Below, one piece after another: positions 6,578 to 32,199 of a stretch of DNA of 32,199 nt (within the stretch, counting starts at the first letter, position 1; each line of letters begins with the position of its first letter). Under the pieces are notes generated by a model. That model ran no database searches. It worked only from the letters and a program-made list of their open reading frames with translations, and was not told the DNA's origin. Source of the DNA: an uncultured Gemmatimonadota bacterium (lineage in GTDB: Bacteria; GCA-2686955). Where the stretch lies: the NCBI GenBank assembly GCA_964490075.1, contig CAZBBK010000068.1, positions 1-32,199 on the forward strand, written 5' to 3'. The translations under genes were made by a program, and so were the position numbers.

Positions 6578-8443
6578 ATGTCCCTCATCGATTCCCGCGC
6601 CCTGCTCTCCGCGGCGCTCACGGCGACCGCCCTCGGCGCATCGGCGAACGCCGCTACCCCCTCCCGCGTCTATCCCCTCCTTCCCTGGGAGGAGATCCCG
6701 ATCCACACGCGGGGCGAGCTGATCGTCCGCTTCGCGGACCATGTCGACATCCACGACCTCGCGACCTTCCACGCAGGCATGGGCACCCGCGGGCGGCTGC
6801 TCAGCGAAGGGCTGAAGATGCAGCGGGTGGCCTTCGATCCGAGCATCGACATCGAGCGCATGATCGATCGGCTCAGCGCTTCTCCCCTGGTCGAGTACGC
6901 CGAGCCTAATTGGGTGGGACAGGCCCTCCACGTCCCGGACGACCCGATGTACATCGAGACCGGCAAGTGGAACGACGTCTACGTCGCCGAGGCCTTCCAC
7001 CTCTTCCCGATCGACGTCGAGCGCGGCTGGGACAGCGCCACCGGCGAAGGCGTCGTCATCGCCCACATCGACACCGGGCTCGACTTCGATCATCCCGAGT
7101 TCGAAGGTCAGCTCTGGGTCAACGAGGACGAGATTCCCGACAACAATCGTGACGACGACGGCAACGGCGAAAAGGACGACGTGCACGGCATGGATTATGT
7201 CGGCAACAACAAAGGCCGCATGATCGAGATTCTCTTCCCGTGGCTCTACGACACCAAGGACGGCAATCCCGACGTGCACGAGACCGGCAACGACGGTTGG
7301 GGAGTTCCCGACCCCTCGATCGGCAACGGCCAGGACGACAATTTCGACGGCTATGCCGACATCGCCGTCTCCCACGGGACCATGACCGCCGGCGCCTGCT
7401 TCGCGGTGATGGACGACGCTCTCGGCATGCCGGGCGCGGCGCCCGACGCCAAGATCATGGTGCTGCGCGCCATCAACCCCGAGGGCCTGGCGCTCTTCGC
7501 CGACGTGATCGCGTCGATCGACTACGCCACCGAGAACGGCGCCGACATCATCAATCTGAGCCTCGGCTGGCCGATCGAAGGACGGTCGCTGCGCGAGGCC
7601 TGCGAGAACGCCTACGCCAACGGCGTGGTGATCATCGCCGCCAGCGGCAACGCCGCCCACGACGGCATCTCCGACGGCGTCGCCTATCCGGCCGGCTGGC
7701 CGACCACCCTGGCAGTGGGTGCCGGCAACACTTCGTTCGGACGCGCCGAGTACTCCGACTTCGGCGCCGCCCTCGACGTGCTCGCTCCCGGCGGCGACGT
7801 GGTTCTCGAGACCAGCACCTTCACCGAGATCTTCTGGAGCACCTGGGTCGCCTCCAAGGCCGACGACAACGACGGCATCGCGCCGATGGGCACGCCGGGT
7901 TGGGCCGGCGGCGCCGGCACCTCTTTCGCCTCGCCGGTGGTGGCGGGGCTGGCGGCGCTCTTCCTCGAGAAGCACCCCAGCGCCGGACCGGCGGCGGTCT
8001 ACGACGCCTTCCGCCAGTCGGCGATCGACACCGGCCCCGACGGTTGGGACGAGCAGACCGGCTACGGCATGGTCAACGCACGCCGCCTGCTGGGGCAGAC
8101 CATGGGCAAGGTGGCCGGCTTCATCTCACCGGACGACCAGAAGATGCCGCCCGGCCAGACCTACATCTCCAACGTGTTGATCACCAACGACGACGACGTC
8201 GCCCATACGGTCGACTTCGAGATCAATGTCTACGACAACGATCGGGTGCTGATCCCGAGCTACAGCCCGCTCGACACCGGAACGGTGACGCTGGATCCCG
8301 GCGAAGTGGTGCGCGGCTCGTTCCCGCACCCGACCCAGTTCGGCATGCCCCAGGGCGTCTACTTCATCTCGATCGAGCTCTTCGAGAACGACCAGCTGAT
8401 CGACTACGAGGATTTCGCCTTCAACTTCAGCATGTTCCTGTAA
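6578..8443 (+). CDS. Secreted S8 (subtilisin-like) serine peptidase with propeptide and C-terminal Ig-like domain
   Basis: Signal peptide, prodomain (GELIVRF..VEYAEPN), catalytic motifs IDTG, SHGT and GTSFASP, oxyanion AASGN. RBS AGGAG. Confidence 0.95.
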   Translation: MSLIDSRALLSAALTATALGASANAATPSRVYPLLPWEEIPIHTRGELIVRFADHVDIHDLATFHAGMGTRGRLLSEGLKMQRVAFDPSIDIERMIDRLSASPLVEYAEPNWVGQALHVPDDPMYIETGKWNDVYVAEAFHLFPIDVERGWDSATGEGVVIAHIDTGLDFDHPEFEGQLWVNEDEIPDNNRDDDGNGEKDDVHGMDYVGNNKGRMIEILFPWLYDTKDGNPDVHETGNDGWGVPDPSIGNGQDDNFDGYADIAVSHGTMTAGACFAVMDDALGMPGAAPDAKIMVLRAINPEGLALFADVIASIDYATENGADIINLSLGWPIEGRSLREACENAYANGVVIIAASGNAAHDGISDGVAYPAGWPTTLAVGAGNTSFGRAEYSDFGAALDVLAPGGDVVLETSTFTEIFWSTWVASKADDNDGIAPMGTPGWAGGAGTSFASPVVAGLAALFLEKHPSAGPAAVYDAFRQSAIDTGPDGWDEQTGYGMVNARRLLGQTMGKVAGFISPDDQKMPPGQTYISNVLITNDDDVAHTVDFEINVYDNDRVLIPSYSPLDTGTVTLDPGEVVRGSFPHPTQFGMPQGVYFISIELFENDQLIDYEDFAFNFSMFL

Positions 8444-13460: not shown

Positions 13461-14303
13461 ATGCCCCAGCGCGCCTTCGCGACGGCCCTGACCGGCGCGC
13501 TGATCTCAGCCTCCGCGGCCTCCGCCTACCAGGTGGGCGACATCACCGACGACTGGACCGTGCTCGACGCCTGGGAAGAGGTATCGCATCGGCTCTACGA
13601 CTACCGGGGCAAGCTGGTCCTCGTAAACCTCTTCCGCGACACCTGAGGCGGCTGCATGCTGGAGGCTCCAGCACTCGAAACGAATATCTGGCAGCCCTTC
13701 AAGGACCGCGGCGTCATGGTCTTCGCCATGAACCGCTTCTCTTACAAGATGGCGCAAGACTGGATCACCGAGTACGAGCTCAGCTACCCCGTGCTCTACG
13801 ACCCGCCGCCCTCCGACGCCTACTGGAGCTACGCGCACCAAGTGCTGCCGCAAAACACACTCACTGACCGCAACTTCGAGGTGATCTTCGACCAGTCCGC
13901 GGGCTACGACGAGGAAGAGATCATCGAGCGGATCGAAGAGCATCTGCACCCCGTCGCGGTGGTGCTGGCGGGTTCGTCCGAGCAGGTGGTCGCCGGCGAC
14001 GACTTCGCCTTCGATGCCCAGCTGAAGAACTGGGGCGACAGCGCGCACAGCTTCGACGCCTGGATCGACGTCATCCTGCCGGGCCATCGACGCCTGCCCA
14101 ACAACCCGCGGCTCGGACCGCTGGCGATCACGCTCGGCGCCGGTCAAACCTGGATCGCGGCGCTTTCGCTATCGGTCCCCGCCCGCACGCCGGCGGCCGA
14201 CAACTATCGAATCAAGCTCTCGATCGGATCGTTCGGCGCCGACGAAATCCGCAACTGCGACCTGATCGAAGTCGACGTGGTGGCCGGAGATCGTCAGCGC
14301 TGA
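13461..14303 (+). CDS. Secreted TlpA/AhpC-TSA-type redoxin selenoprotein (UxxC) with C-terminal Ig-like domain, 280 aa
   Basis: ORFs 13461..13646 and 13656..14303 are in one frame, separated only by TGA-GGC-GGC-TGC. The joined reading is [25 protein letters not shown], at the thioredoxin-fold CxxC position. A SECIS-like hairpin follows and selA is nearby. Confidence 0.9.
13644..13677 (+). promoter_or_regulatory. Bacterial SECIS-like element
   Basis: TGA at 13644-46, a 10-nt spacer, then stem TGCTGGA / loop GGC / TCCAGCA (13657-13673). A lower pairing TGAG/CTCG is possible. Confidence 0.75.
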
Positions 14304-15106
14304 CACTTTCCGCAGTAGTATGTCGCTCGCTGCCCCTGGCGGCGCATGCGTAGCTCACGGCCACAGCGCGCGCAAGAGTCGCCGGCGCGGCCGTAGACCT
14401 GCAGCGACAGTCCGAAGTAGCCGGGCTCGCCGTCGGCGCGGGTGAAGTCGCGCAGACTGGTGCCGCCCTGATCGATCGCCTCTCGCAGCACCTGCTGAAT
14501 CGCGTCCGCCAGGCGCCGGTGGCGCGGCAGCGAGATCCGCCCGGCGGCGCGAAAGGGGTGGATCTCGGCGCGGAAGAGCGTCTCGCTGGCGTAGATATTG
14601 CCCACCCCCACCACCACCGCCGCGTCCATGATGAAGGGCTTGACGGCCAGACGCCGGCCGCGCGAGCGCGCGAAGAGATGCGCGCCGTCAAAGGCCGCCT
14701 CCAGCGGCTCCGGACCGAGCTTGGCCAGCAGCGGATGGTCGAGGGGGCGGCGCTCGGTCCAGAGCAGAGCGCCGAAGCGGCGCGGATCGCGCAGCCGCAG
14801 CGCGCGCCCGTCGTCGAGCTCGATGTCGACGTGATCGTGGGGTCCGGGCGGCGCGCCGGCCGGCACGATGCGCAGGCTGCCCGACATGCCCAGGTGGATG
14901 ATGGCAGTGCCGCGCACCGTCTCCAGCAGCAAGTACTTGCCGCGGCGGCGCACCGTCGTGAAGGTCTGCCCGCGCAGCCGCCGAATCCGCGCCGGCACCG
15001 GCCAGCGCAAGCGCGGCTGGCGCACAACGATCCGCTCGACCGCGCGGCCCTGCAGATGGGGCGCGATGCCGCGCCGGGTGATCTCCACTTCGGGCAGCTC
15101 AGGCAC
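14294..15106 (-). CDS. mutM: Formamidopyrimidine-DNA glycosylase / AP lyase
   Basis: N-terminal PELPEVE, RRGKYL, HLGMSG, DPRRFG, H2[11 protein letters not shown] and C-terminal CxxC..CxxCQ zinc finger. Confidence 0.98.
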
Positions 15107-15130: not shown

Positions 15131-18100
15131 TCATCGTCCGAACACTCGAAAGCCGGCCCAGAAGTAGGGGTGCGACTCGGGGGCGATGCGCTCGAGCCGC
15201 GGGTCGGCGCGCTGGTCCGCGAGCTGCTCGCGCCGAGCTTCCGCCAACGCGGCCACCGCGTCGCCGTCGGCGGCGGCCAAGGCTCGGTAGAAACGCTCGA
15301 TCAGGACGACCACGCCGCGGTCCTCGACCGACCACAGCGACGCCACCACGGCACGCGCCCCGGCCTGCACGAAGGCCCGGCTGAGACCGAGGATTCCCTC
15401 GGCTCCCGAGACCCGTCCACCGGCCACGTGGCAGGCCGAAATGACGACGATCGGCGCGCGCTCCAGCGTCACTTCGGCGATCTCGTAAGATTGCAACCAG
15501 GCGTCCTCGCGGTGTCGCGCCCCGGCCGAGAGCACCACCCCGGCATAGGAAGGATCGTCGCCGTCGACCAGCCCGTGACAGCCGAGATGAATGATGTCGG
15601 CAGCGCCCGCATGCTCGCGATAGGCCGCCTCACGGGCCTGCTCGCGCACCAATGCCCGCGTCTTGGGATAAATCTGTTGCAGAAGGCGCACCTCTTCGGC
15701 GGTGCCGGGCAGACGCGGCAGGTGGACCAGGGTGTCGGCCGAGGACTCCGCCTGCGCGTAGACCGGATCGCCGAACGCCAGCACCGTCGGCTCCGCCGCG
15801 GGAGCGCCGCGGGCGCGAATCAACGCCGGATCGAGCAGGGTCGCCGAAGGACCGTAGCCGATCTCGAAGCGCTCGCAGACGTACTCCGGCGCCGCGAAGC
15901 GGTCGACGCCCTCGCCCGCGTCCCAGCCCCTTTCGCCCGGCATCCGCAGCACCAGCATCTCGAAGGGCAGGCGGTGCAGCGGCCCGGAGGGCACGACCAA
16001 GAGCCGCCGCACTCCCTGCAAATGCTCCAGCGCCGACTCCAGAACCCAGTGCGCCAGGCGCCGCAGGTCGCGCGGGAGCAACGCCACCGGGCGCGGTGTG
16101 TCGCCGACCAGCGGCGCCACAACTTTGTCCACCAGGGCCTCGATCTCGGCGACCCCGCGCTCGAGAGTGAGCGCGTGCGCGCGCTCTTCGCGCACCACCC
16201 ACAGGTGCAGCACGTCCCCCGCGGCGAAGTACTCCAGCAGCGCCACATCCGCACCCGCGACCACCCGCTCCCGCACTCGCGCCAGATCGAGCGGCTTCAC
16301 CAATCCCTCGCTCGCCGCCAATCCCGGATCGGCGAGCGCCAGGTCGTCGAGCAGCGCGCTGTGCTCGCGGCGCACCCGCTGCAGCTCGCCCTCCAGGTAG
16401 CCGACCAATCCCCTGCGCGGGGCCGGAGCGGATTTCTCTTCGATCAGCGCGTCCTGCAACGCCCGCAGATGCAGCTCCAATCCGCTTCTCTTCTCGTCCA
16501 CCGCGCCGGCGGCCGCGCCGCTGCCGCGCTCCCCGCGCACCAGTTCGAGCAGCGAGCGTGCCTTGGCCCGCTCGGCCATCTCGAAGGCGCGCTCCGGGTC
16601 CCCGGCGTCCTCCAGGAAAAATGTGCCGGCATCGCCCAGCAAGGGCTGCGATCCCTCCAACACCCGCACCCGCCGGCTGTCGGCACCGATGTCTCGCAAC
16701 AGATGCTCCGCGTCGTCCACCGCCCTCTCGTACTCGGCGGCGGCCGCACCAGTGTCTCCCACGCTTCGCAGCGACTCGGCCAGCACGTGACGCGCGTCGA
16801 TCAGCGCCAATATATCGGCCGCCCCGTCCAGGCAGCGACAGGCCCGTGTCGCCAACACCACCGCGCGCCTTGGCCGGCCACGCCGGAGCTCGGCGCGACT
16901 CCAGTCCCTGAGCACCGTGCCCTCGCCGCGGACATTCCCCAAGCGTCGATGGAGCGCCAGCGCCCGCCGTTGCAGACGCCGCGCCTCGCGGGTCTCGCCC
17001 GCCGTCTCTCGCAAGGCGGCCAAAGACACGAGACACTTCGCCTGTCCCGTCTGATCGCCCACATCGCGGTGAATCTCGAGGGCCTGCTCGAAGAGATCGA
17101 GCGCGCGACCAAGCTCGCCGGCGGCCCGCCGCCCGTCCGCCAGCTCGCGGATCGCCTCGGCCTCGCTGGCGCGGTCGCCCAGTTCCCGAAAGATCGCCAG
17201 CGCCCGGTCGAAGAGATTCGCGGCACGCTTCGGATCGCCGGTCTGACGGTGCAGCTTGGCCAGGTTCTGCAGCGTGACCCCCTCGAAACGTCGATTGCCC
17301 ATCTCGCGCTGGATCCGCAGCGCCCGGTCGAGAAGCTCGCGCGCACGACCGTAGTTCCCACCATGATGCATGTGAACGCCCAGGTTCAAGAGCGCCATCC
17401 CCTCGGTCCACCGGTCTCCAACCTCCCGGCAGATCGCCACCGCCCGCTCCAGCAGCTCATCGGTACGGAGCGTGTCGCCCATCTTCTGGCTGCGGATCGC
17501 GAGGTTGCAGAGCGCCGCCGCCTCGCTGCGCCGGTTGCCGACCTCGCGATGAATGGCGAGCGCTTGCTCCAGGCTCTTGCGGATGTCCCTCGGGTCTCCT
17601 TGCTCGTCGGAAAAGGTCGTCAGGCTGGCGAGCGTCATCCCCTCGCCGAGACGGTCGCCGATCCCCCGCTGCAGCGCCAGGGCGGCGTGAAAGAGTTCCA
17701 TCGCCGATTCCGATTCGCCGATGATCCCGCGCAGATGCGCCAGGAGCTGCGCACCTTGACCGGCCGAGCGCCGGTCGCGGACCGCGAGCGCCTCGGCGAT
17801 GGCGGCGCGCGCAAAGCGCATGGCGCTGACCGGCCCGCTGACCGACATGGCGCGCCGGGTGACCACGAGATTGGCGCGGGCGCGCTCTCTGCCGGTACGC
17901 GCCCGGTCCAGCACCGCGGCACGAATCTCGTCCAGATCGCCGGGCGATCCGCGCAGCAGAGCGATCTGGGCGTGCAGGGTGCGCGCCCAATGCCGAAGCG
18001 CACGCGGAGCGTCGCAGCGCAGCACCCAGTCGACGATCTCCAGCGGGCGGTCGGTGTGGCCGCGCAGCAGATGCTCGCACAGGGCGAGGGCCACCACCGG

Positions 18101-18529
18101 CTCGTGGGCGGGCGGGTCGGGGCGGGGGAAGGCCGGCAGGACGCTTGCGGTCAGCTCTCGGTGCCAGTCGCCGGAGCGCGCCAGGCGCGCCGCGAGAGGG
18201 CCGAAGACCGCGTCGTCGATCCGCCGCAGCGCCTCCCAGTGGAGCATCGCCCGCTCGGCGGCATGCAGCCGCGGCGCGGAGGCGGGCGCACGGGATGCCG
18301 GAGCGAGACACAAGTCGGGATCCGATTCGACCGCCGCGCGGATCGCGGGCGGCACATCCGCCCAGGCGCCTGGTCCCTTCTCAGACCACTCCTCGGCCCG
18401 CTCGGCCGCCACCAGACTCGCCTCGGCGATCTCGCGCAGCGCCTCCGAATCCCAGGGAAACGACTCCACGAAGCTCCGGAGCGTGGCGACGCGGTCCTGC
18501 TCGAGCAGCTTCGGGACGATCTGTGACAT
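15131..18529 (-). CDS. TPR-repeat + CHAT (caspase-like) protease
   Basis: Multiple TPRs (e.g. ALAIHREVGNRRSEA), ERAKARSLL, PSGPLHRLPF, catalytic His in HLGCHG (15575-77) and Cys in ISACH (15431-33), VVASLW.V.D and PYFWAGF. Start is uncertain (ATG 18529 chosen). Confidence 0.93.
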   Translation of the reverse strand: MSQIVPKLLEQDRVATLRSFVESFPWDSEALREIAEASLVAAERAEEWSEKGPGAWADVPPAIRAAVESDPDLCLAPASRAPASAPRLHAAERAMLHWEALRRIDDAVFGPLAARLARSGDWHRELTASVLPAFPRPDPPAHEPVVALALCEHLLRGHTDRPLEIVDWVLRCDAPRALRHWARTLHAQIALLRGSPGDLDEIRAAVLDRARTGRERARANLVVTRRAMSVSGPVSAMRFARAAIAEALAVRDRRSAGQGAQLLAHLRGIIGESESAMELFHAALALQRGIGDRLGEGMTLASLTTFSDEQGDPRDIRKSLEQALAIHREVGNRRSEAAALCNLAIRSQKMGDTLRTDELLERAVAICREVGDRWTEGMALLNLGVHMHHGGNYGRARELLDRALRIQREMGNRRFEGVTLQNLAKLHRQTGDPKRAANLFDRALAIFRELGDRASEAEAIRELADGRRAAGELGRALDLFEQALEIHRDVGDQTGQAKCLVSLAALRETAGETREARRLQRRALALHRRLGNVRGEGTVLRDWSRAELRRGRPRRAVVLATRACRCLDGAADILALIDARHVLAESLRSVGDTGAAAAEYERAVDDAEHLLRDIGADSRRVRVLEGSQPLLGDAGTFFLEDAGDPERAFEMAERAKARSLLELVRGERGSGAAAGAVDEKRSGLELHLRALQDALIEEKSAPAPRRGLVGYLEGELQRVRREHSALLDDLALADPGLAASEGLVKPLDLARVRERVVAGADVALLEYFAAGDVLHLWVVREERAHALTLERGVAEIEALVDKVVAPLVGDTPRPVALLPRDLRRLAHWVLESALEHLQGVRRLLVVPSGPLHRLPFEMLVLRMPGERGWDAGEGVDRFAAPEYVCERFEIGYGPSATLLDPALIRARGAPAAEPTVLAFGDPVYAQAESSADTLVHLPRLPGTAEEVRLLQQIYPKTRALVREQAREAAYREHAGAADIIHLGCHGLVDGDDPSYAGVVLSAGARHREDAWLQSYEIAEVTLERAPIVVISACHVAGGRVSGAEGILGLSRAFVQAGARAVVASLWSVEDRGVVVLIERFYRALAAADGDAVAALAEARREQLADQRADPRLERIAPESHPYFWAGFRVFGR

Positions 18530-18738
18530 CGGGCGTGGGACTCGAGAAACCAGAAGCGAAACGCGACGGGACGGTGGCTGTCGCCCCCCGGAGACGGCTC
18601 GACCATACCCGACCTCGGGTCCGCCGCCCACGCGGCTGTCGAAGATCGCTTCGTCGGTCGATGGTCCAGAAAGATGCCCGTGGACCAGCATCCGTTATAG
18701 TTTGAGTGCTCGACCCGTTCCACGCCTGGAGACCACCC

Positions 18739-20613
18739 GTGAGAATCTTCCGCGCTCTGGCGGCCCTGTGGCTGCCCGCGCTCCTTGCCTCGGCGCACGC
18801 TGCCGTGCTCACCGTGCCGGTTCCCTACGCCAAGATTCAAGACGCGATCAACGCCGCCGCGGTCAGCGGCGACACGGTGGTCATCGACAGTGTCGCCTCC
18901 CCGTACATGGGACCGGGCAACATCGATCTCTCGTTCGAGGGCAAAGAGGTGGTGGTCCAGAGCCTCGATCCCTTGTTGCCTCAGGTTCGCGACGCCACCG
19001 TGATCGATGCCGCCGATACTTCTCGCATCGCCTTGATCGACCAGGGCGAGGGCCCCGGCGCCAAGCTGCGCGGGCTGACATTGCGCAACGGCGGCAGTAG
19101 AACCTCCGGCCCCTTCGCCGGAAGCGGCGGCGCCCTGCTTTGCGTCGGCACCAGACCGGCGGTCGAGAACTGCAAGATCGTCAACAGCCAGGCCTGGGAC
19201 GGCGGCGGGGCGGCCTGCGTCGACGGCGCGAGCGTGAAGCTGATCGACTGCCTGATCCACGCCAACAGCGCCGAAGAAGAGCTGAACGGGACCGGGCGCG
19301 GCGGGGCGGTCTACGCGTCGCAGAGCTCGGTCGTCGAGCTGCGCCGCTGCACTCTGGAGCAGAACGACGCCGAACGCAACGGCGGCGCGGTCTTCGCCGA
19401 CGGCCAGAGCAGACTGGTGGTGATCCAGTCGACCCTGACCGGCAACCACGCGGGCAACGACGGCGGGGCGATCGCGGCGCTGAACGTGGCGCAGCTTCGG
19501 GTCCTGAAGTCGCAGATCCGCAACAACGACGCCGCCCGTTTCGGCGGCGGCCTGCGGGTCCACGGGAATTTCTACCCGATCATCTCAGCCTGCGAAATCC
19601 AGCTCAACGACGCCGGCGATACCGGAGGAGGGATGTACCTCACCAAGGCGTCGGGGATCGTGCGTTTCAGCAACTTCATCAACAACGAAGCCGAGCGCGG
19701 CGGCGGCGGCCTGCACGCCGGCCAATCGAACGTCACCCTACTGCGCTGCCAGATCCTGCGCAACGAGCTGACGTCCAACGCGGTGGCCAACGGCGGCGGC
19801 ATCCAGTTCGTCGGCGGCGCGCCGCAGGTGGTGGCCTCGAGAATCGGCATCAACACCGCCCAGTCCGGCGGCGGCGTGGCGGCCCTGGCGCAGTCGAAGC
19901 CGACGCTGGTGAGCTGCATCATCGACTCCAACATCGTGCTGCTGCTCGACGAAGCGGCCGGTGCGGGCGGAGGCGTGCTGGCCGCCGACTCGTCTCCGAT
20001 CCTGTCCCACTGCACGCTCGTCCACAACGAAATGACGATCGCCGGCGGCGCTCTCTACGTAGAGGGCGCCTCGTCGACCGTCGAGGTCCACAACAGCATC
20101 CTTTACTTCAACGATGGCAACCAGATCGACGTGGCCGCGGGCTCGGTGACGGTCGACTACACCGACGTCGAGGGGGGCTACACCGGTTTCGGCAACATCG
20201 ATGTCGAGCCGACCTGGGAAGGCAACTTCCTACCGGATTTCAAGTACATTCCCGACGTGATGGCGGCGGTGGTCGACTCCGCCGATCCGGGCGACCCCGA
20301 CGACTACATCGACTGGTGCGGGTTCGCCGACACTTTCGGCATCGAGCTATGGTGTACCGACTCCGACACCAACACCTGCGCCCCCGACATGGGCGCCTAC
20401 GGCGGGCAGGAAGCCGAGTGGTGGATGAAAGGCACACCGGGGCAGATCCTCGATCCCTGCGGGATGTCGATGAGCCCCCTCTCCGCTATGATCGACGTGG
20501 ACGAAGTGAAGCCGGAGCCGGACCCGGTGCCTCCGGTGCCACTGGCGGCGCTCCACCGCCGGCCCGACGAAGACCGAGACCGGCCCGGGGCCGGACGGCA
20601 AGAAGCGCGCTGA
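18739..20613 (+). CDS. Secreted right-handed parallel beta-helix repeat protein
   Basis: Signal peptide, N-cap VP.PY.KIQDAINAA..GDTV, many N.A..GGA/GGG repeats and C-terminal PDMGAYGG. GTG start with GGAG. Confidence 0.88.
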   Translation: MRIFRALAALWLPALLASAHAAVLTVPVPYAKIQDAINAAAVSGDTVVIDSVASPYMGPGNIDLSFEGKEVVVQSLDPLLPQVRDATVIDAADTSRIALIDQGEGPGAKLRGLTLRNGGSRTSGPFAGSGGALLCVGTRPAVENCKIVNSQAWDGGGAACVDGASVKLIDCLIHANSAEEELNGTGRGGAVYASQSSVVELRRCTLEQNDAERNGGAVFADGQSRLVVIQSTLTGNHAGNDGGAIAALNVAQLRVLKSQIRNNDAARFGGGLRVHGNFYPIISACEIQLNDAGDTGGGMYLTKASGIVRFSNFINNEAERGGGGLHAGQSNVTLLRCQILRNELTSNAVANGGGIQFVGGAPQVVASRIGINTAQSGGGVAALAQSKPTLVSCIIDSNIVLLLDEAAGAGGGVLAADSSPILSHCTLVHNEMTIAGGALYVEGASSTVEVHNSILYFNDGNQIDVAAGSVTVDYTDVEGGYTGFGNIDVEPTWEGNFLPDFKYIPDVMAAVVDSADPGDPDDYIDWCGFADTFGIELWCTDSDTNTCAPDMGAYGGQEAEWWMKGTPGQILDPCGMSMSPLSAMIDVDEVKPEPDPVPPVPLAALHRRPDEDRDRPGAGRQEAR

Positions 20614-20683
20614 CTCCGGCTTGACGGGGTGGGAACCACCCACCCCCCGAGAACGCGTCCGCCGCGGGGGTCCGAAGCAACCG

Positions 20684-21307
20684 ATGAGTCGAAAAGACCT
20701 GGGCGCACGACTCGAGCAGGTGGACTGGGCCACCGTCGGCGTTCAGCTGGTCGGTTATGCCGCTTACCTGGCCCGCGGCTATCGCTGGGGGTCGAACGCG
20801 GCCGACACGCTGGCGCTCGGCATGGCCGCCGAGGACGTCGCCGCACTGGCGATTCGCAAAGTCTGGTCCGGCGAGCGGCGCTGGGATCCGGAACGTCACG
20901 ACGAATTGCTCCGCTTCTTGAAAGGGGTCGTGAGGAGCGAGATGGGACACCTCTATCATCGATCCGCGGCGCGCCACGAGGTGCGCAACCCGACCGGTCC
21001 CGACGGGAACGAGTCGGAAGCGAAGCTGGAGCGGCGCGCCGGTGAGGCGATCGAGCGCTCCGATCCGGAATCGGCGCTGATCGACCGCGAGGAACGAGCC
21101 CGGGAGGCGGCGCGCATCCACGATCTGCGCGCCGCGGTGGCCGACAGGCCAGAGCTGATCGCGATCATCGACGCGATCGGAGCCGGCTGCGGCGAGCGCC
21201 CGCGCCATCTCGCCGAGCACCTGGGGATCGCCGTTCCGGAGATCAACAACCGCCTCAAACGCCTGCGTCGAGCAGCCCTGCGCATCGAACCGGGGGTGCC
21301 TCAATGA
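20684..21307 (+). CDS. ECF-like RNA polymerase sigma-70 family factor
   Basis: Region-2-like AEDVAALAIRKVW..RRWDP..LLRFLKGVVRS, PES linker, and region-4 HTH RHLAEHLGIAVPEINNRLKRLRR. Confidence 0.7.
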   Translation: MSRKDLGARLEQVDWATVGVQLVGYAAYLARGYRWGSNAADTLALGMAAEDVAALAIRKVWSGERRWDPERHDELLRFLKGVVRSEMGHLYHRSAARHEVRNPTGPDGNESEAKLERRAGEAIERSDPESALIDREERAREAARIHDLRAAVADRPELIAIIDAIGAGCGERPRHLAEHLGIAVPEINNRLKRLRRAALRIEPGVPQ

Positions 21308-21867
21308 GCAAAGACGACGCACAGGAAATGGACGAGCGCGAGCTGGCGCGGCGCCTGGGCAGCGCCTTCGCCGAGACCGAGCCGGATGCCGATTTCGACG
21401 CCGCGGCCGAGCTGCGCGCCCTCGGCCTCGACCCGGACCAGGTGGCCGCGCGCATGAAGCGCGTGGCGGGCCGGGCGCGGCTGGAGCGGCGGGCCCGGCG
21501 GCTGCGTTCCTTTCTGGCCCGGCGTATCGACCACCTGCTGGAAGGCCTGGATTCGTTGCTGCCTCTGGCGCCGGCTCCCGCGGCGGTGCTGCGTGGCGGC
21601 GCCCACGCCCCCCGCAGCTCCGCCGATCCGCGCCTGGAAGAGGCCGTGGCGCTGCTCGGCAACGGCGCTTACGACCAGGCCAAGACCCGTCTCGACGACC
21701 TCATCGCCGACCACGGCCGGCAAGAGATCTACCTCTGGCTGCTGGCCCACGCCGAGCTCGGGCGGGGCGAGATCGGATGCGCCCGCGCATCGCTCGCCGC
21801 CATCGAGGGCGAGCTCGCACCGCGCGCGCGGGAGCTGCTGGAGGCGATCGAGGGGGAGGGGTTGTAG
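21304..21867 (+). CDS. Putative cytoplasmic anti-sigma factor with C-terminal TPR-like helices
   Basis: ATGA overlap with the sigma stop, no TM segment, helical N-domain (ELRALGLDPD), APAPAAVLRGG linker and TPR-like C-terminus. The anti-sigma function is inferred from context only. Confidence 0.55.
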   Translation: MSKDDAQEMDERELARRLGSAFAETEPDADFDAAAELRALGLDPDQVAARMKRVAGRARLERRARRLRSFLARRIDHLLEGLDSLLPLAPAPAAVLRGGAHAPRSSADPRLEEAVALLGNGAYDQAKTRLDDLIADHGRQEIYLWLLAHAELGRGEIGCARASLAAIEGELAPRARELLEAIEGEGL

Positions 21868-22149: not shown

Positions 22150-24963
22150 GTGTGCTGTGACACGCGAGATCGGCCAACGCTGGATGTCGTTCCTCTCTCG
22201 TTCCTCGTAGCTCTATGGGTCGCGCCGCTGGCTGAAGGGCAGGCACTGCCGCCCTACTACGAGCCGTGGCCAGCCGGTGTGAGCCTGGTCGAGAACAGCC
22301 GCTTCGATGCGATCCAGTTGATCGGGCCAATGAACACCGACGGCCTCTCATCCGAGTTCCTCACCTACCGGGCCGACCTGACCCAGCCAAGGCACGGGAC
22401 GCGGCACGCGAAGGCGTTTCAGTGGGCTGAGTCGCCGATCCGGGTCTCCTTCTACGCCAGACCCGAGATCCCGGAAGCTCGATTGCAGCTCACGGCCATT
22501 CTGCGCGGCATCGCCGGTCAAGAGGAGGCCACGACGACGACTCTCTCGCTCGACCCACCCGCGGAGGAGTACGAGCACGTGGTCTGGGATGTCGAGCCGA
22601 CCGGCTTCGCGGTCGAAGAGATCGAGCTCAGGATCTTCGCGCTGGACGCCGGCAAGATCTGGCTCGACTTTCTGCGGATCACCGACGATCTGGAGTGGTT
22701 GAGCGAAGGGACGGAACCTCCGATCTACGCCCGTACCGACGAGGGCTACCTCACCAAGAACGGCGCGCCCCATTTTCCGCGGATCCTGTGGTGGGGCAAT
22801 GCCGCCTGGCGCGATCCCAACGATCTGGACGATGCCTTCGGCGCCCTGGCCGATCGCGGCTTCAGCGGGGTGTTCGCGCCACCCAGACAGGGCGATCCCG
22901 CCTCCTACTCACGGCGCGGCCTGCGCGTCTTCCTCGACACCGCGGAATGCCATGGGCTCGAGGTGATCGCGCACCTGCCGATCTTCCCCTGCTGTCCTGG
23001 AGGCGACTGGCCCAAAGAACGTGTACTGGTGGAAAGCTGGGTGGGAGGGTTCAGCGATCATCCGGCGCTCTTCGGCTGGCTGTTGCGCGACGAGGTCACG
23101 CTCCACCAGATTCGTGACCTGCCCCCCAGTTGGCCGGTTCGCGACTGGGTGCGCGCGGCCGAGGACGATCCGGACCGATTCCATCCGCTGCTGGCGTACA
23201 CCAGCGAAGGCCCCTTTGTCGCTCCCTGGACCTGGAGTGATTCGCTCCACTTCAACACCTACGACTGCTTGCAGTACTTCCACGGCAACGTCGACATCAT
23301 CGCCCCGAACATGCTGCCGATCCAGAACAACCTCTCCGGAAACAACCCCCGCCGACGCTACTCGATCGCGACCAGGCTGGCCAAGTCCAGCGCGATGCAG
23401 GCCCGCCTGACCCAGCCCGGCGATGTGCCGATGATCATGCCCTCGATTCAGGTGGAGCCCGCCCACTGCAACACCCGCTCACCCTCGGCCGTCGATGTGG
23501 GCGGCATGGTCGCACAGGCGGCGCTGGAAGGGGCGTCTGGGGTGCTGTTCTGGAAGGCGTATTGGGATCTGGCCGCGGAAGAGGAGGTCACGCCTCCAGG
23601 GCAGGAGCCGGAGTACGGAAAGGTCGCCAACGGTTACCCGGATCCCGACGATGGATGCGACGAGGGAGACGACCCGGAGTATCGCGAGTTTCGTCTGCTG
23701 ATTGCCGATTCGCGCGAGCTCTGGGAGGACCGGGATGCCAGCTACGGCCTGCCCGGACAGGGAGACACCGTCGCGGGTGGTGCGCAGTCGCTGTGGCAGG
23801 ACCTGCCGACGATCTTCGAGAAGGCGACCCAGCTCTTTCAGAAGATCTACGCGAAGACTACCGGGGATGGGTTTGAGAGGGAGTTGATTTACGATGATGG
23901 CGCCGATGTTGAGGTGGTGGATGGTTACGTCAAGAGCCCCTCTGGTGGCGACGGAGAGAGCTGGCAGATGCAAGTGGGAGGGAGAGGCGGCCACTACCGC
24001 TCGATGCTTCGATTCGAGTCTGACGGATTCAACGCGAACTATGGTACCGACTGCGACACGAGAGTGCGCCGGGCGGTGTTGCGCACACTCCTGCTGCATA
24101 ACCAGGACGTGCCTCTGGGGCCTGGTGAGGACGCCCCGCTTCCGCCTGGTGACGAGGGCGAAGACGTCGCTCTGAACCTGTTCGCCGCTGAGCTGCCCGC
24201 GGGATTCGACTACTGGTCCGAGGGAGACATCTCGTGGACCACCGTGGGGGAGTGGCTGGACAATTCCGCGGTCGGCCTCATGGACTGGGATACGATCGTA
24301 GCGATCGAGCGCATGGAGAAGCACCTGGCAGGGCAGTTGTTCTACGATCACGTCTACCTTGAGTTCGACCTTACCGATCTTTTCTGCCAGTGGGCCTCCT
24401 CCACCAACCCCAACTCCGGCCTCTTCATCCAACCCGACTTCCGCCGACAGCTCGCTGCATACTACGCCGTCATTGGAACCGAGGACTGGCCTCCGGAAAA
24501 GCAGCCCTTCGTCTCCCCCCATCTCGAGATCCACTCCTATCCCGCCGACACGAGCGGCCCGCGGGTAGAATCGTTCGAGGTGGCCGCCGATTTCGCATGG
24601 GAGGTCGGCGCGGACCTGTACGTTCTGGAGGATTGGGACAGCGCGGACAGAAACGAAGCCTGGCTCGCGGTAACGAATCCGGCCAATATGTCGCAGTGCT
24701 TGCAGGTCTACTCCGGTCAGGTCGATACCACGTACCTGGTGCAGGGATACGATCTTTGGAGGGGGCAACCGCGGGCGCCGTATGCGGCTTCTTGGAAGCC
24801 CGCTAGAAACTGCTCGGAGTACAGCGCAGTGAGCTGCGAGTGCGTTCCCACGGCGGGGGATACCCTGTGGTGCGGCGAGGACCCTCATGAGTACATGTGT
24901 TGGTACTACTTCGGGACGAAGATCCTGCCCTGGGAAACCAGGCTCCTCAAGGTGTACAAGTGA
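22150..24963 (+). CDS. Large secreted protein: glycoside-hydrolase-like TIM barrel + DNRLRE-like domain
   Basis: Hydrophobic N-terminus. KNGAPHFP and DHPALFGWLLRDE are GH-A-like. YRSMLRFE..VRRAVLR..WSEGDISW..LEFDLTDL..W..NSGLFI is DNRLRE-like. Start is uncertain. Confidence 0.7.
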   Translation: MCCDTRDRPTLDVVPLSFLVALWVAPLAEGQALPPYYEPWPAGVSLVENSRFDAIQLIGPMNTDGLSSEFLTYRADLTQPRHGTRHAKAFQWAESPIRVSFYARPEIPEARLQLTAILRGIAGQEEATTTTLSLDPPAEEYEHVVWDVEPTGFAVEEIELRIFALDAGKIWLDFLRITDDLEWLSEGTEPPIYARTDEGYLTKNGAPHFPRILWWGNAAWRDPNDLDDAFGALADRGFSGVFAPPRQGDPASYSRRGLRVFLDTAECHGLEVIAHLPIFPCCPGGDWPKERVLVESWVGGFSDHPALFGWLLRDEVTLHQIRDLPPSWPVRDWVRAAEDDPDRFHPLLAYTSEGPFVAPWTWSDSLHFNTYDCLQYFHGNVDIIAPNMLPIQNNLSGNNPRRRYSIATRLAKSSAMQARLTQPGDVPMIMPSIQVEPAHCNTRSPSAVDVGGMVAQAALEGASGVLFWKAYWDLAAEEEVTPPGQEPEYGKVANGYPDPDDGCDEGDDPEYREFRLLIADSRELWEDRDASYGLPGQGDTVAGGAQSLWQDLPTIFEKATQLFQKIYAKTTGDGFERELIYDDGADVEVVDGYVKSPSGGDGESWQMQVGGRGGHYRSMLRFESDGFNANYGTDCDTRVRRAVLRTLLLHNQDVPLGPGEDAPLPPGDEGEDVALNLFAAELPAGFDYWSEGDISWTTVGEWLDNSAVGLMDWDTIVAIERMEKHLAGQLFYDHVYLEFDLTDLFCQWASSTNPNSGLFIQPDFRRQLAAYYAVIGTEDWPPEKQPFVSPHLEIHSYPADTSGPRVESFEVAADFAWEVGADLYVLEDWDSADRNEAWLAVTNPANMSQCLQVYSGQVDTTYLVQGYDLWRGQPRAPYAASWKPARNCSEYSAVSCECVPTAGDTLWCGEDPHEYMCWYYFGTKILPWETRLLKVYK

Positions 24964-27380: not shown

Positions 27381-28460
27381 GGGTTTTCGTCCTTCGCCAG
27401 GTCCGAGATCGAGCTCATCGCGCCCCCTCCACCTCTTCACCAGAGCCTTTGGGAGCCCGCCGGAACCCACCGAGCAGCTCATCTGTGGCTCTCCGGCAGC
27501 TCATCGGATCGATAGCGCTTGCTTGTGAGCCGGTCTGCTCCCGAGAGTCGCCAGGCAGGGCAAGCTCCGCCCCTTGCGCGGTTTGAGCGCCATGCCATGC
27601 GTATTTCCGAGGACGAGGGCGGTCGCGCGAGTCGTGAAACGATCGGCCGGCTGACGTCAGGCGAAGTCGAGCTCGAGCTCATCGAGCGGTCGCGCGGGTT
27701 CGATCGGGGGCACACGGGTCGGCAGACCGACCGAGCTCAGAATGCGCATAATCGTGTCGGGTTCGGTAATGAACGAGATGAGCTCGAGCCAGCCACCCGC
27801 GCAGTCCAGGCAGGCCAGGGCGTCGATCCCGAACACGCGTTTCAACAATCGCGCCCAGGTGAGCCTCGCGCGCCCTCGCGCGGGGAAGTCCTCGACCTGA
27901 TTCTCGGCCTCGGCAGGGCATTTGGGGCACGGGTCCGGGGAGGGATCGAAAGCCGCGGGCACGACCCGAGATCGCAGTGCGGTGTTGGGCGCGAGCACAC
28001 CGTGGTAGACGAGCAGGTGGCTGCGCGGCGCGGGTATGAGAGCCACGAGCCGCTCGGTGGCGATCGGCGGGCGCGCGACATAGCGGCACAACCGTTCCAG
28101 GGCGGGGCGATCGTCGGCCTGCAGAACCACGCCAGCGCGGATGTTGAACCCGCCGGCGCTGGTGTCGCGGCGGATCGTTGCCGTCCCCGCGGCTCCCCGC
28201 GCCAGGCGAGTCGCCGGCGGAATGCGCATCCCTGCGCGCGGACCTTGGGCGATGGTGCCGGCGGCGGAGGCGTGGCCGAGACGCAGGAGAATCTCGTCAT
28301 CGGTGTCGCCCTCTTCCTCGCCGACGCTCGCCATCGTAAACCCGCGTTCCTCCAGCGCACGGGCGACCCTGCGGCGAACCCGGCGCGCGATGCGAGCCAG
28401 ATCGTCTTCGTCAGGCGCCGGTGTGGGATGGAAGAGCAGCTCGCCAGAATCACCTCCGTA
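27363..28460 (-). mobile_element. IS91/ISCR-family element remnant (3' half of transposase 27657..~28460 plus oriIS end)
   Basis: Motifs GFNIRAGV..DDRPALERLCRYVARPP, LIPAPRSHLLVYHGVLAPN and WARLLKRVFGIDALAC..C..ITEP..I.RIL. The HUH-containing N-terminal half is missing. Confidence 0.85.
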
Positions 28461-28598
28461 TGGATCCTGGTTTTGGCTCGTGTTGATGGTCTGGATCGAA
28501 GGGTTCGGACTCTGTGCTCGACGGTGCCGAGCGCGACGCTGCCGGTACCGCACCTCCGCGAGGGACCTCGATCGACACAGTGGCGGACGTGCCGTGGC

Positions 28599-30703: not shown

Positions 30704-31225
30704 TTACACGTCCATCGATTCCGGCTCGTAGTACTCCCGTGGGTGTTTGCAGCACGGGCATTTTCCCGGAGGCTGGGTCCCCTCGTGAATGTAGCCGCAC
30801 ACCGAGCACTTCCATCGAATCGGGGCCTCGCGCTTGTAGACGGTTCCTTTCTCGACCATCTCGAGCAGGCGCTTGTAACGGTCGCGGTGCTCGGCTTCGA
30901 CCCGGGCGATCATCTTGAACAGAAGCGCCGCCTCTTTGTTGCCCTCCTCTTCGGCCGCTGCGGCAAACTCCGGATACATCGCGGTGGTCTCGTAGTGCTC
31001 ACCCTCGATCGCCTCTTTCAGGTTCGCCACCGTATCGCCGATTCCACCGAGCAACGCGAACTCGTCCTTCGCGTGCCGCATCTCGTTGATCGCCGTCTCC
31101 TCGAATACCTTGGCGATATAGTGATAGCCCTCCTTCTGCGCCACCTTGGCGAAATAGGTGTACATATTGCGCGCCTTACTCTCGCCCGCAAACGCAGCCT
31201 CTAGATTCTCTTCTGTCTTCGACAT
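30704..31225 (-). CDS. rbr: Rubrerythrin
   Basis: Di-iron motifs AFAGES, NEMRHA, GEHYE and EAEH, plus C-terminal rubredoxin-like WKCSVCGY..CPCC. ATG 31225 after GAGG. Confidence 0.95.
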   Translation of the reverse strand: MSKTEENLEAAFAGESKARNMYTYFAKVAQKEGYHYIAKVFEETAINEMRHAKDEFALLGGIGDTVANLKEAIEGEHYETTAMYPEFAAAAEEEGNKEAALLFKMIARVEAEHRDRYKRLLEMVEKGTVYKREAPIRWKCSVCGYIHEGTQPPGKCPCCKHPREYYEPESMDV

Positions 31226-31390
31226 CGATCGTTCCTCGCATGGATATCTCTCTCGACCAGCGATCGGGGATTCGGTCGTTGCGCCCGATCGCGCGGGGCG
31301 CCCATTGTAGTTGGGTTTGTCCGAGCACTGGTAGGCGAATGCACCCGGGACTGAACTTAGGGTCCGCGCAGAAATACTGTCATCCGACCC

Positions 31391-31425
31391 ACAGCCCACA
31401 GCCCACGGCCCACGGTCCACAGTCC
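31391..31425. repeat. Five degenerate tandem 7-bp repeats (ACRGYCC)
   Basis: acagccc acagccc acggccc acggtcc acagtcc. Confidence 0.8.
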
Positions 31426-31508
31426 AAATGCGCAAGGCAGCACCGTCCGGGACCGGCGTGAACGGTTACACCCGGACTCCCCGGTGTTCGGCACGAGTGG
31501 GGACCGCG

Positions 31509-31946: not shown

Positions 31947-32199
31947 GTCACCTCCTGGCTCTGCCGTGGAATCCCTGGAGGGCGGCAGGTTGGTCTGGTC
32001 GCGAGCGCCTCGTATGGTAGGGGAGCACAGGTCGCGGGACCATCCCCCTGTAGCCTATCCTGCCTGCACGAATCCCGGCGCCGGCGCCGGGAGGACGACG
32101 CGGAAGGGCATGCACAGGTTGAACCCGAAGGCCATCGGGGAGTTTAGGTGCGGTTGTCAACCACCTACCGTCCGAAAACTCAGGACAGTCGCCGGCCGA

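Follow-up and report, generated by a model that had tools for sequence, protein, structure and literature searches.

Can a TPR-CHAT protease gate a sigma factor outside any CRISPR system? The question is raised by a 32.2-kb contig (C68) of an uncultured Gemmatimonadota bacterium, analysed here over its whole length and referred to as the window. In it, a TPR-CHAT protease gene lies divergent from three genes that encode a secreted beta-helix protein, a divergent sigma factor of the extracytoplasmic function (ECF) type and a small soluble partner, in that order. An earlier sequence-only reading had described this arrangement, including the coupling of the last two genes, and the coupling was confirmed as an ATGA overlap. 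Starting from the observed gene structure, domain homologies, conserved linkage and promoter motif, we consider the best reading to be a protease-gated sigma switch in which the partner would be cut by CHAT, and give it about an even chance of being correct.

In such a switch, sigma and partner would form a sigma/anti-sigma pair acting on the promoter in front of the sigma gene. The N-terminal helical domain of the partner, conserved wherever the sigma occurs, would hold the sigma, and its C-terminal TPR-like domain, specific to the bacterial family, would couple by docking to the cytoplasmic TPR-CHAT protease. A trigger sensed by the TPR and N-terminal region of the protease would activate the His/Cys site, and the protease would then cut within the partner's disordered linker, probably behind Arg97 (AVLR97 followed by GG). 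The freed sigma would amplify its own operon and might turn on a small regulon elsewhere in the genome.

The protease itself is well defined. Its open reading frame (ORF) matches CHAT in Pfam with an E-value of 1e-59 (202.8 bits against a cut-off of 24) and TPR_12 with 3.7e-40. His (in HLGCHG) and Cys (in SAC) show no variation across an alignment of seven CHAT proteins, nor in a second alignment, and the intact dyad of the sequence-only reading was thereby confirmed, together with the position it had given for the Cys codon, as was the lack of a signal peptide: a hydropathy scan found no transmembrane-like or signal-like segment in the protein, which indicates a cytoplasmic location. Similarity to relatives begins only at residue 61 of the longest frame, so the start is probably the internal ATG of Table 1; the genes called earlier are real and in place, and start codons were moved for the protease, the beta-helix protein and the sigma. 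The protease belongs to a longer paralogue group (about 1130-1190 aa). A phmmer search of its CHAT domain against PDB sequences (E up to 10) returned zero solved chains, and hence neither Csx29 nor DdvA.

The partner, the putative substrate, has a conserved reading frame (63% identity to the syntenic locus L003, versus 42% for the antisense frame) and a two-domain model with a predicted local distance difference test score (pLDDT) of 81.3. Modelled helices at residues 11-24 and 33-39 and a long one at 44-85 make up the N-terminal domain; the linker falls below 50 in pLDDT, and the five-helix C-terminal domain reaches about 95. A structure search matches the C-terminal domain to TPR folds, and the partner profile retrieves only TPR proteins. 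The protein has neither a transmembrane segment nor an HxxxCxxC motif. A hidden Markov model (HMM) of the N-terminal domain (first 70 alignment columns) finds a match directly after the sigma gene in 22 of 22 sigma-family loci. At E-values up to 1e-3, the partner-family profile collects 533 clusters (50% identity) from 1.84 billion proteins, most of them about 150 or about 190 aa long.

What follows the N-terminal domain differs by class. Partners of about 150 aa with a short tail are followed by a stand-alone M78 peptidase gene (L006, L010, L020 and L022), and partners of about 190 aa with a weakly helix-turn-helix (HTH)-like C-terminus by an M78-UvrD fusion (eight loci, L012-L019; two ORFs in L018). 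Two more 190-aa partners (L011, L021) have other genes behind them. A further class carries a transmembrane segment with DUF1329/LolA-like domains (L005, L007, L008 and L009); L023 is grouped with it, its weak DUF1329 match falling in the ORF after the partner. The Gemmatimonadota partners bear the TPR-like C-terminal domain, and L004, where the contig stops just after the N-terminal domain, is left unclassed. In 12 of the 22 loci, the gene next behind the partner encodes M78 or M78-UvrD; with CHAT in the Gemmatimonadota loci, a protease appears from these neighbourhoods to be the recurrent third component. A conserved N-terminal binding module joined to variable C-terminal sensor modules is the standard architecture of anti-sigma factors. 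The partner behaves like such a modular anti-sigma factor, and its assignment as a putative anti-sigma factor is supported by this context.

Some further observations concern these loci. Matches of the N-terminal-domain HMM in the stop-to-stop ORF of the sigma in L004 and L007 gave the appearance of sigma-partner fusions, which were rejected: the two frames differ by 1-2 nt, and the partner frame is merely open upstream in GC-rich DNA. The M78-UvrD fusions of L012-L019 (Entotheonella, Blastocatellia and others) are proteins of about 1150 aa that combine an M78 (IrrE/ImmA-type) peptidase with a UvrD helicase; in L016, a TPR-CHAT gene (1147 aa) comes 0.9 kb later. In L021 and L011, a 149-aa ORF without a known family follows the partner, and the opposite strand carries an AAA ATPase gene upstream; L021 also encodes a 640-aa protein with a dCTP-deaminase-like domain.

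Table 1. Coordinates of the module features in the window (strand relative to the contig as deposited).
Feature	Coordinates	Strand	Remarks
TPR-CHAT protease	15131..18529	-	longest ORF to 18691 (1186 aa); probable start ATG 18529, 1132 aa
Catalytic codons	His 15575-15577; Cys 15431-15433	-	dyad of HLGCHG (His) and SAC (Cys)
Conserved block	18656..18701	+	GGTCGATGGTCC (direct-repeat-like), 22 nt, ATCCGTTATAGT; in the CHAT/beta-helix divergent intergenic region
Secreted right-handed beta-helix protein	18739..20613	+	624 aa from GTG 18739; ORF open from 18706; PF13229 E 7e-20
Family bipartite promoter-like motif	20597..20621	+	GGCAAGA-N14-CGGCT; overlap with the beta-helix stop codon; 63 nt to the sigma ATG
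Divergent ECF-like sigma	20684..21307	+	207 aa; ORF open from 20621; probable start 20684
Two-domain soluble partner	21304..21867	+	187 aa; ATGA overlap with the sigma stop codon
Partner regions (structure model)	residues ~10-85, N-terminal; 88-105, disordered linker; 109-184, C-terminal TPR-like	+

An indication that partner and protease work together comes from the C-terminal domain. When the last 92 residues of the partner were searched with phmmer against the complete six-frame set of 66,177 ORFs from the genome (G000; 5.7 Mb in 136 contigs, about 69% G+C), two other proteins were found. One is an XRE-type HTH protein (E 1e-6), and the ends of its gene and of the CHAT gene on C16 are 15 bp apart; the other is an HTH paralogue on C73 (E 1.7e-4). 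A jackhmmer search added a zf-HC2 anti-sigma factor encoded on C33, where its gene and the end of the CHAT gene overlap. Three of the four C-terminal-domain proteins in this genome are thus encoded at CHAT genes, and in the related genome G001 all three strong matches to the domain profile lie on CHAT contigs, 2-5 kb from the CHAT domains. A profile of the C-terminal domain, run on 55 CHAT loci from many phyla, matched only three of them, all from G001. One domain is therefore carried by three unrelated N-terminal modules, that of the window partner, a zinc anti-sigma domain and an HTH domain, as would be expected if it served the neighbouring protease as a docking or receiver module.

Two of these loci can be described on their own. 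L027 (C33:29553-34106, minus strand) is an operon that combines TPR-CHAT and a sigma (Sigma70_r2 E 6e-5) with a zf-HC2 anti-sigma factor bearing the shared C-terminal domain, and is the clearest same-strand form of the proposed circuit in the genome; no sigma was found in the gap upstream of the C33 CHAT gene, the sigma lying instead downstream of the zf-HC2 gene. The XRE-type HTH gene of L087 (C73:9382-10254, minus strand) is flanked on one side by a sigma-54 activator/histidine kinase pair and on the other by polysaccharide-export-like genes.

In front of the shared domain, an alignment column of the form hydrophobic-hydrophobic-(L/V/F/T)-Arg is found in eight of nine proteins and is missing only from the C73 protein. 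The window version ends in Arg97 (codon 21592-21594) within the disordered, low-confidence stretch of the model. Similar motifs (AVVRGQ, AGLRGG, LALRGN, FVVRGD and FVLRSD) are found in soluble anti-sigma-like proteins beside other CHAT genes. On the strength of this alignment, the Arg97 motif is put forward, as a hypothesis, as a candidate cleavage site.

The linkage of the genes extends beyond the window. Its closest relatives in public collections are metagenome-assembled genomes labelled Gemmatimonadota, and the order comprises four genomes only, all in one bacterial family. The four-gene arrangement recurs in both relatives with sufficient contig; G002 and G003 are fragmented, so that module linkage is not scorable there. 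G001 contains three copies of the sigma family, an orthologue and paralogues that are 36% and 27% identical. Each copy is followed by a C-terminal-domain protein and has a TPR-CHAT gene 2-3 kb away, and a beta-helix-like or lamin-tail-domain secreted protein is encoded between sigma and CHAT. As far as these comparisons go, the module appears to have been duplicated as a unit and kept.

CHAT genes and sigma genes also meet more widely. This genome has seven TPR-CHAT genes and 21 Sigma70_r2 matches, six of which fall within CHAT loci at a distance of 0.7-2 kb to the CHAT gene. Counting the sigma of the window, six of the seven CHAT loci hold a sigma gene, and the seventh, on C16, has the HTH/C-terminal-domain protein. 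In 45 CHAT loci of other phyla (117 flanking ORFs; ten short, partial or duplicate loci excluded), sigma-70 domains were found in nine, zf-HC2 in one, and an S8 subtilase directly after CHAT in six. The wider association of CHAT with sigma factors is real and already known.

The identification of the 207-aa protein as a sigma factor is marginal by sequence profile and is supported, at the level of structure modelling and motif comparison, by the fold search and by the upstream motif. Its AlphaFold model (pLDDT 77.9) has as its best Foldseek matches the Mycobacterium tuberculosis sigma factors SigH and SigL, Escherichia coli sigmaE, AlgU and CnrH, at a probability of about 1.0. Sigma factors fill the first seven places and make up the majority of the top thirty, with alignments of about 190-220 columns. 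The best match, 6kop_F, has an E-value of 2.2e-3 (probability 1.0), and none reaches 1e-3. By sequence, the sigma call is weaker than the sequence-only reading had implied. The family is rare, with ten clusters among 5.8 billion and none with a precomputed Pfam domain, and this sigma is single-copy in the genome. In the M78-UvrD cassettes, the sigma is 30-35% identical (tblastn E 1e-17 to 1e-20), and one source labels a relative "sigma-24 family protein".

In 18 of 22 regions, from about ten lineages across phyla, the sigma gene is preceded by a bipartite motif in which the two GGC triplets are spaced by 21-22 nt, GGC(A/G)A(A/G)A ... (C)CGGC(A/T). The 22 regions are those of 21 loci and the window; L012, whose contig begins at the sigma gene, was left out. 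The four regions without it (L006, L010, L020 and L022) are exactly the class with short partners and stand-alone M78. In the window, one match was found against 0.06 expected. To judge from the aligned sites, the fixed 21-22 nt spacing gives the motif the geometry of an ECF promoter. A position weight matrix (PWM) built from the 18 sites gave 15 hits of at least 18 bits genome-wide, compared with one in a reversed-genome control, and the site in front of the window's sigma is among the top hits.

Several findings weigh against a protease-gated switch. The CHAT HMM matches only three of the 22 sigma-family loci. Two of them, L002 and L003, show synteny with the window; in the third, L016, CHAT lies 4.4 kb beyond the M78-UvrD gene. 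The linkage with CHAT, which the sequence-only reading had proposed surveying among homologues of the sigma and partner, holds in the Gemmatimonadota family and is lacking in 19 of 20 loci outside it. Conversely, among the 55 CHAT loci, this sigma family is found in the four Gemmatimonadota loci only. By these surveys, CHAT linkage of the sigma family appears confined to one bacterial family of four related genomes. The CHAT gene is divergent from the partner gene, two genes away and not in the same operon. As for the shared domain, it is a generic TPR-like fold, the C73 protein that carries it is not encoded beside a CHAT gene, and its similarity to a small protein on C5 is insignificant (E 0.31). 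The Arg motif was defined post hoc from the sequences, in a GC-rich proteome where RG dipeptides are common. Finally, the sigma scores 17.2 bits with Sigma70_r2 (cut-off 24) and 20.3 with TIGR02937 (cut-off 42.9; positions 22-159 of 165 covered). The sigma-family profile retrieves no sigma from PDB sequences, and the Foldseek TM-scores are low, at about 0.3, as expected of two domains on a flexible linker.

Protease and partner could also be coupled without cleavage, an arrangement for which securin and separase are the model. The TPR-like domain would then be an inhibitor, adaptor or pseudosubstrate, and the sigma would be freed by partner switching once the protease engages something else, or the partner would regulate the protease. 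The association data fit this arrangement equally well, because they show coupling and not direction, and TPR-TPR contacts are plausible; yet the invariant His/Cys dyad speaks against it, and a conserved Arg motif in a disordered linker between domains suits a substrate better than an inhibitor. In the assays reported for DdvA, catalytic-dyad mutants were like wild type, a point in favour of coupling without cleavage (PMC11506125). We regard this arrangement as unlikely, if still the most credible departure from cleavage of the partner by CHAT.

It is a little less probable, in our judgement, that the adjacency is inherited synteny, with sigma and partner answering some other signal and CHAT acting on unrelated substrates. 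Family members without CHAT outside this lineage are what such a history would leave behind, as is a protease gene divergent from the pair and two genes apart; moreover, the CHAT-linked instances are kin, as all come from four related genomes of one family. Against this stand the persistence of the module in paralogous copies whose sigmas have drifted to 27-36% identity, the recurrence of the C-terminal domain beside other CHAT paralogues on unrelated N-terminal modules, and the presence of a sigma in six of seven CHAT loci although the 5.7-Mb genome has only 21 Sigma70_r2 matches.

That the 207-aa protein is another HTH regulator, and the pair a different two-gene regulator, is very improbable: the Pfam and NCBIfam scores under their cut-offs and the weak winged-helix matches that the family profile finds in the PDB (such as MntR and ArsR, E 0.08-0.4) would allow it, but the sigma factors heading the Foldseek ranking, the fixed spacing of a bipartite motif typical of ECF-type promoters and the sigma-24 name given to a relative all oppose it.

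Cleavage of the partner by CHAT can be placed in a broader and more tentative scheme, to which we give clearly less than even weight. The sigma and the partner's N-terminal domain would form a plug-in core, wired through exchangeable C-terminal receiver domains to sensor proteases that are not homologous to one another (TPR-CHAT, M78, M78-UvrD) or to membrane sensors. In the Gemmatimonadota family, a TPR-like receiver with an Arg linker would mark the partner, the zinc-finger anti-sigma factor and the XRE-type HTH proteins as CHAT substrates. If this is true, the lineage would possess a caspase-style proteolytic signalling network for transcription factors. Since CHAT-linked and M78-UvrD-linked sigma switches are joined by one sigma/partner family, the protease is suggested to be an exchangeable input.

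How does the module relate to known systems? The M78-UvrD cassettes share with the window the sigma family, the N-terminal domain of the partner and the promoter-like motif; unlike them, the window has a TPR-CHAT neighbour and no M78 or helicase, both of which are absent from its ORFs in Pfam scans, and the partner's C-terminus is TPR-like rather than HTH-like. In the CalpL-CalpT-CalpS system, a SAVED-Lon protease reportedly cleaves an anti-sigma factor in type III CRISPR signalling. The likeness to the circuit proposed here lies in a soluble anti-sigma factor whose cleavage frees an ECF-type sigma, whereas CalpL differs in its protease fold, its activation by cyclic oligoadenylate and its linkage to CRISPR. 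To the best of our knowledge, release of a sigma factor by a protease is established for two systems, both linked to CRISPR, and has been proposed for DdvA and ECF54; we know of no test of the stand-alone CHAT cases.

In the type III-E craspase, the TPR-CHAT protein Csx29 is said to cleave Csx30, a binder of the sigma factor RpoE. The window resembles this system in its logic, that of a TPR-CHAT protease, a small and here putative sigma-binding protein and an ECF-type sigma, and Csx29-Csx30-RpoE, as described, is the precedent for signalling between TPR-CHAT and sigma (PMC10028731). Unlike type III-E loci, the window lacks Cas7-11: among the ORFs called over its whole length, Pfam scans revealed no cas genes, and Tandem Repeats Finder gave no CRISPR array, as the sequence-only reading had also stated. 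No sequence relationship was found to Csx29 (phmmer against the PDB) or to Csx30 (the partner profile retrieving TPR proteins only). The comparison is best treated as an analogy only. Of the stand-alone proteolytic sigma cascade proposed earlier, module conservation, CHAT-sigma linkage and an anti-sigma-like partner have support from context.

DdvA-DdvS of Myxococcus xanthus offers a second precedent, in which anti-sigma function is tied to TPR-CHAT and proteolytic release was proposed (PMC11506125). As described there, DdvA unites a zinc anti-sigma domain, at its N-terminus, and a periplasmic TPR-CHAT region in one transmembrane polypeptide; in the window, by contrast, the protease is separate and cytoplasmic, and the partner lacks both the membrane segment and the zinc motif.

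In gene content, the ECF54 group offers a further likeness. Its context has reportedly been attributed also to Huang et al. in 2015. As given in the supplement of Casas-Pastor et al. (2021; PMC7826278), it consists of an ECF sigma, a carboxypeptidase-regulatory-like protein, a subtilase and TPR-CHAT, and so resembles the window as a CRISPR-free association of an ECF-type sigma with TPR-CHAT and a putative mechanism. One locus of this genome, on C6, matches that published context gene for gene. Compared with the context so described, the window partner is without the carboxypeptidase-regulatory-like domain, and no subtilase belongs to the module. In addition, the CHAT gene stands outside the operon, in divergent orientation, its product belongs to the longer paralogue group, and the sigma is unlike that of C6, with no similarity between the two (blastp E 7.6). 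On these sequence comparisons, the sigma/partner pair appears to be a distinct, unannotated family and not ECF54; what seems to be new here is a separate sigma/partner family that carries CHAT in place of M78.

The locus brings together, in a form small enough to test, a soluble protease, a two-domain candidate substrate of 187 aa for which a cut site is predicted, a sigma and a promoter motif. Should the C-terminal domain turn out to dock on CHAT, it would also serve as a sequence tag for predicting substrates of bacterial caspase-like proteases.

As to output, the sequence-only reading had the sigma inducing the beta-helix gene or a downstream island of secreted proteins. Neither suggestion is borne out by the PWM, which finds no sites of at least 11 bits in front of the CHAT gene, the beta-helix gene or the 937-aa gene; the module has a single family-type promoter, located past the beta-helix gene and immediately ahead of the sigma. 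The downstream island is not conserved in L003, and neither are the 937-aa gene and the stretch of lower G+C behind it. Within the window, the matrix gives two hits only, the autoregulatory site and one inside an S8 subtilase gene. Elsewhere in the genome, a candidate target site at C1:265606 (minus strand) lies about 50-80 nt before the gene of a secreted DUF6345 protein, and a second, at C17:71332 (plus strand), is intergenic with a doubtful target gene. A third, at C16:76964 (plus strand), is intergenic and precedes the HTH/C-terminal-domain gene; at 17.2 bits, it falls under the level of 18 bits used in the reversed-genome control. A role in defence had also been considered, and PADLOC returned nothing specific to defence, giving only generic TPR and subtilase matches.

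The C1 locus (L085; C1:264643-265626, minus strand) is an operon of the secreted DUF6345 protein and a second secreted protein beside an FG-GAP repeat protein, and its site is among the three best intergenic motif matches outside the window. The subtilase site (7164-7194, 21.3 bits) falls within the coding sequence of the gene at 6578-8443 (plus strand), which encodes an S8 subtilase with a fervidolysin-like prodomain; located 8 kb from the CHAT gene and outside the module, it is the nearest subtilase.

The product of the beta-helix gene is secreted, as had been read from the sequence: a PF13229 match is joined by a classical signal peptide when translation begins at the GTG of Table 1, a start supported by a GGAGA ribosome-binding site and by the alignment of relatives. 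Orthologues 58% identical occupy the same position in L002 and L003, as does an orthologue in G003 (L094), and a beta-helix-like gene is found in one paralogous module of G001. The conserved block in the divergent intergenic region is common to the window and to loci L002 and L003, with 0 matches expected in the window and one found, and ends in a TATAGT hexamer that resembles a -10 element, 38 nt before the beta-helix start. Its second box, ATCCGTTATAGT, is unique in the genome, and its first, GGTCGATGGTCC, is found once more. Because the gene has this conserved upstream block with TATAGT, control by the sigma cannot be asserted.

The remaining observations concern the surroundings of the module. 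Directly after the CHAT gene lies a formamidopyrimidine-DNA glycosylase gene (14294-15106, minus strand); another such gene (L070, 3098-4003) precedes a CHAT gene by about 1 kb in an unrelated locus from Acidobacteriota, which may be coincidence. On the other side, the 937-aa secreted protein (22150-24963) has a weak DNRLRE-domain match only and no orthologue in L003. From 24900 to the end of the window at 32199, the G+C content is lower (0.62-0.67) and ORFs are poorly defined; this stretch carries a Y2_Tnp transposase-like ORF (27657-28598, minus strand), an LVIVD-repeat ORF and a rubrerythrin gene (30704-31465, minus strand).

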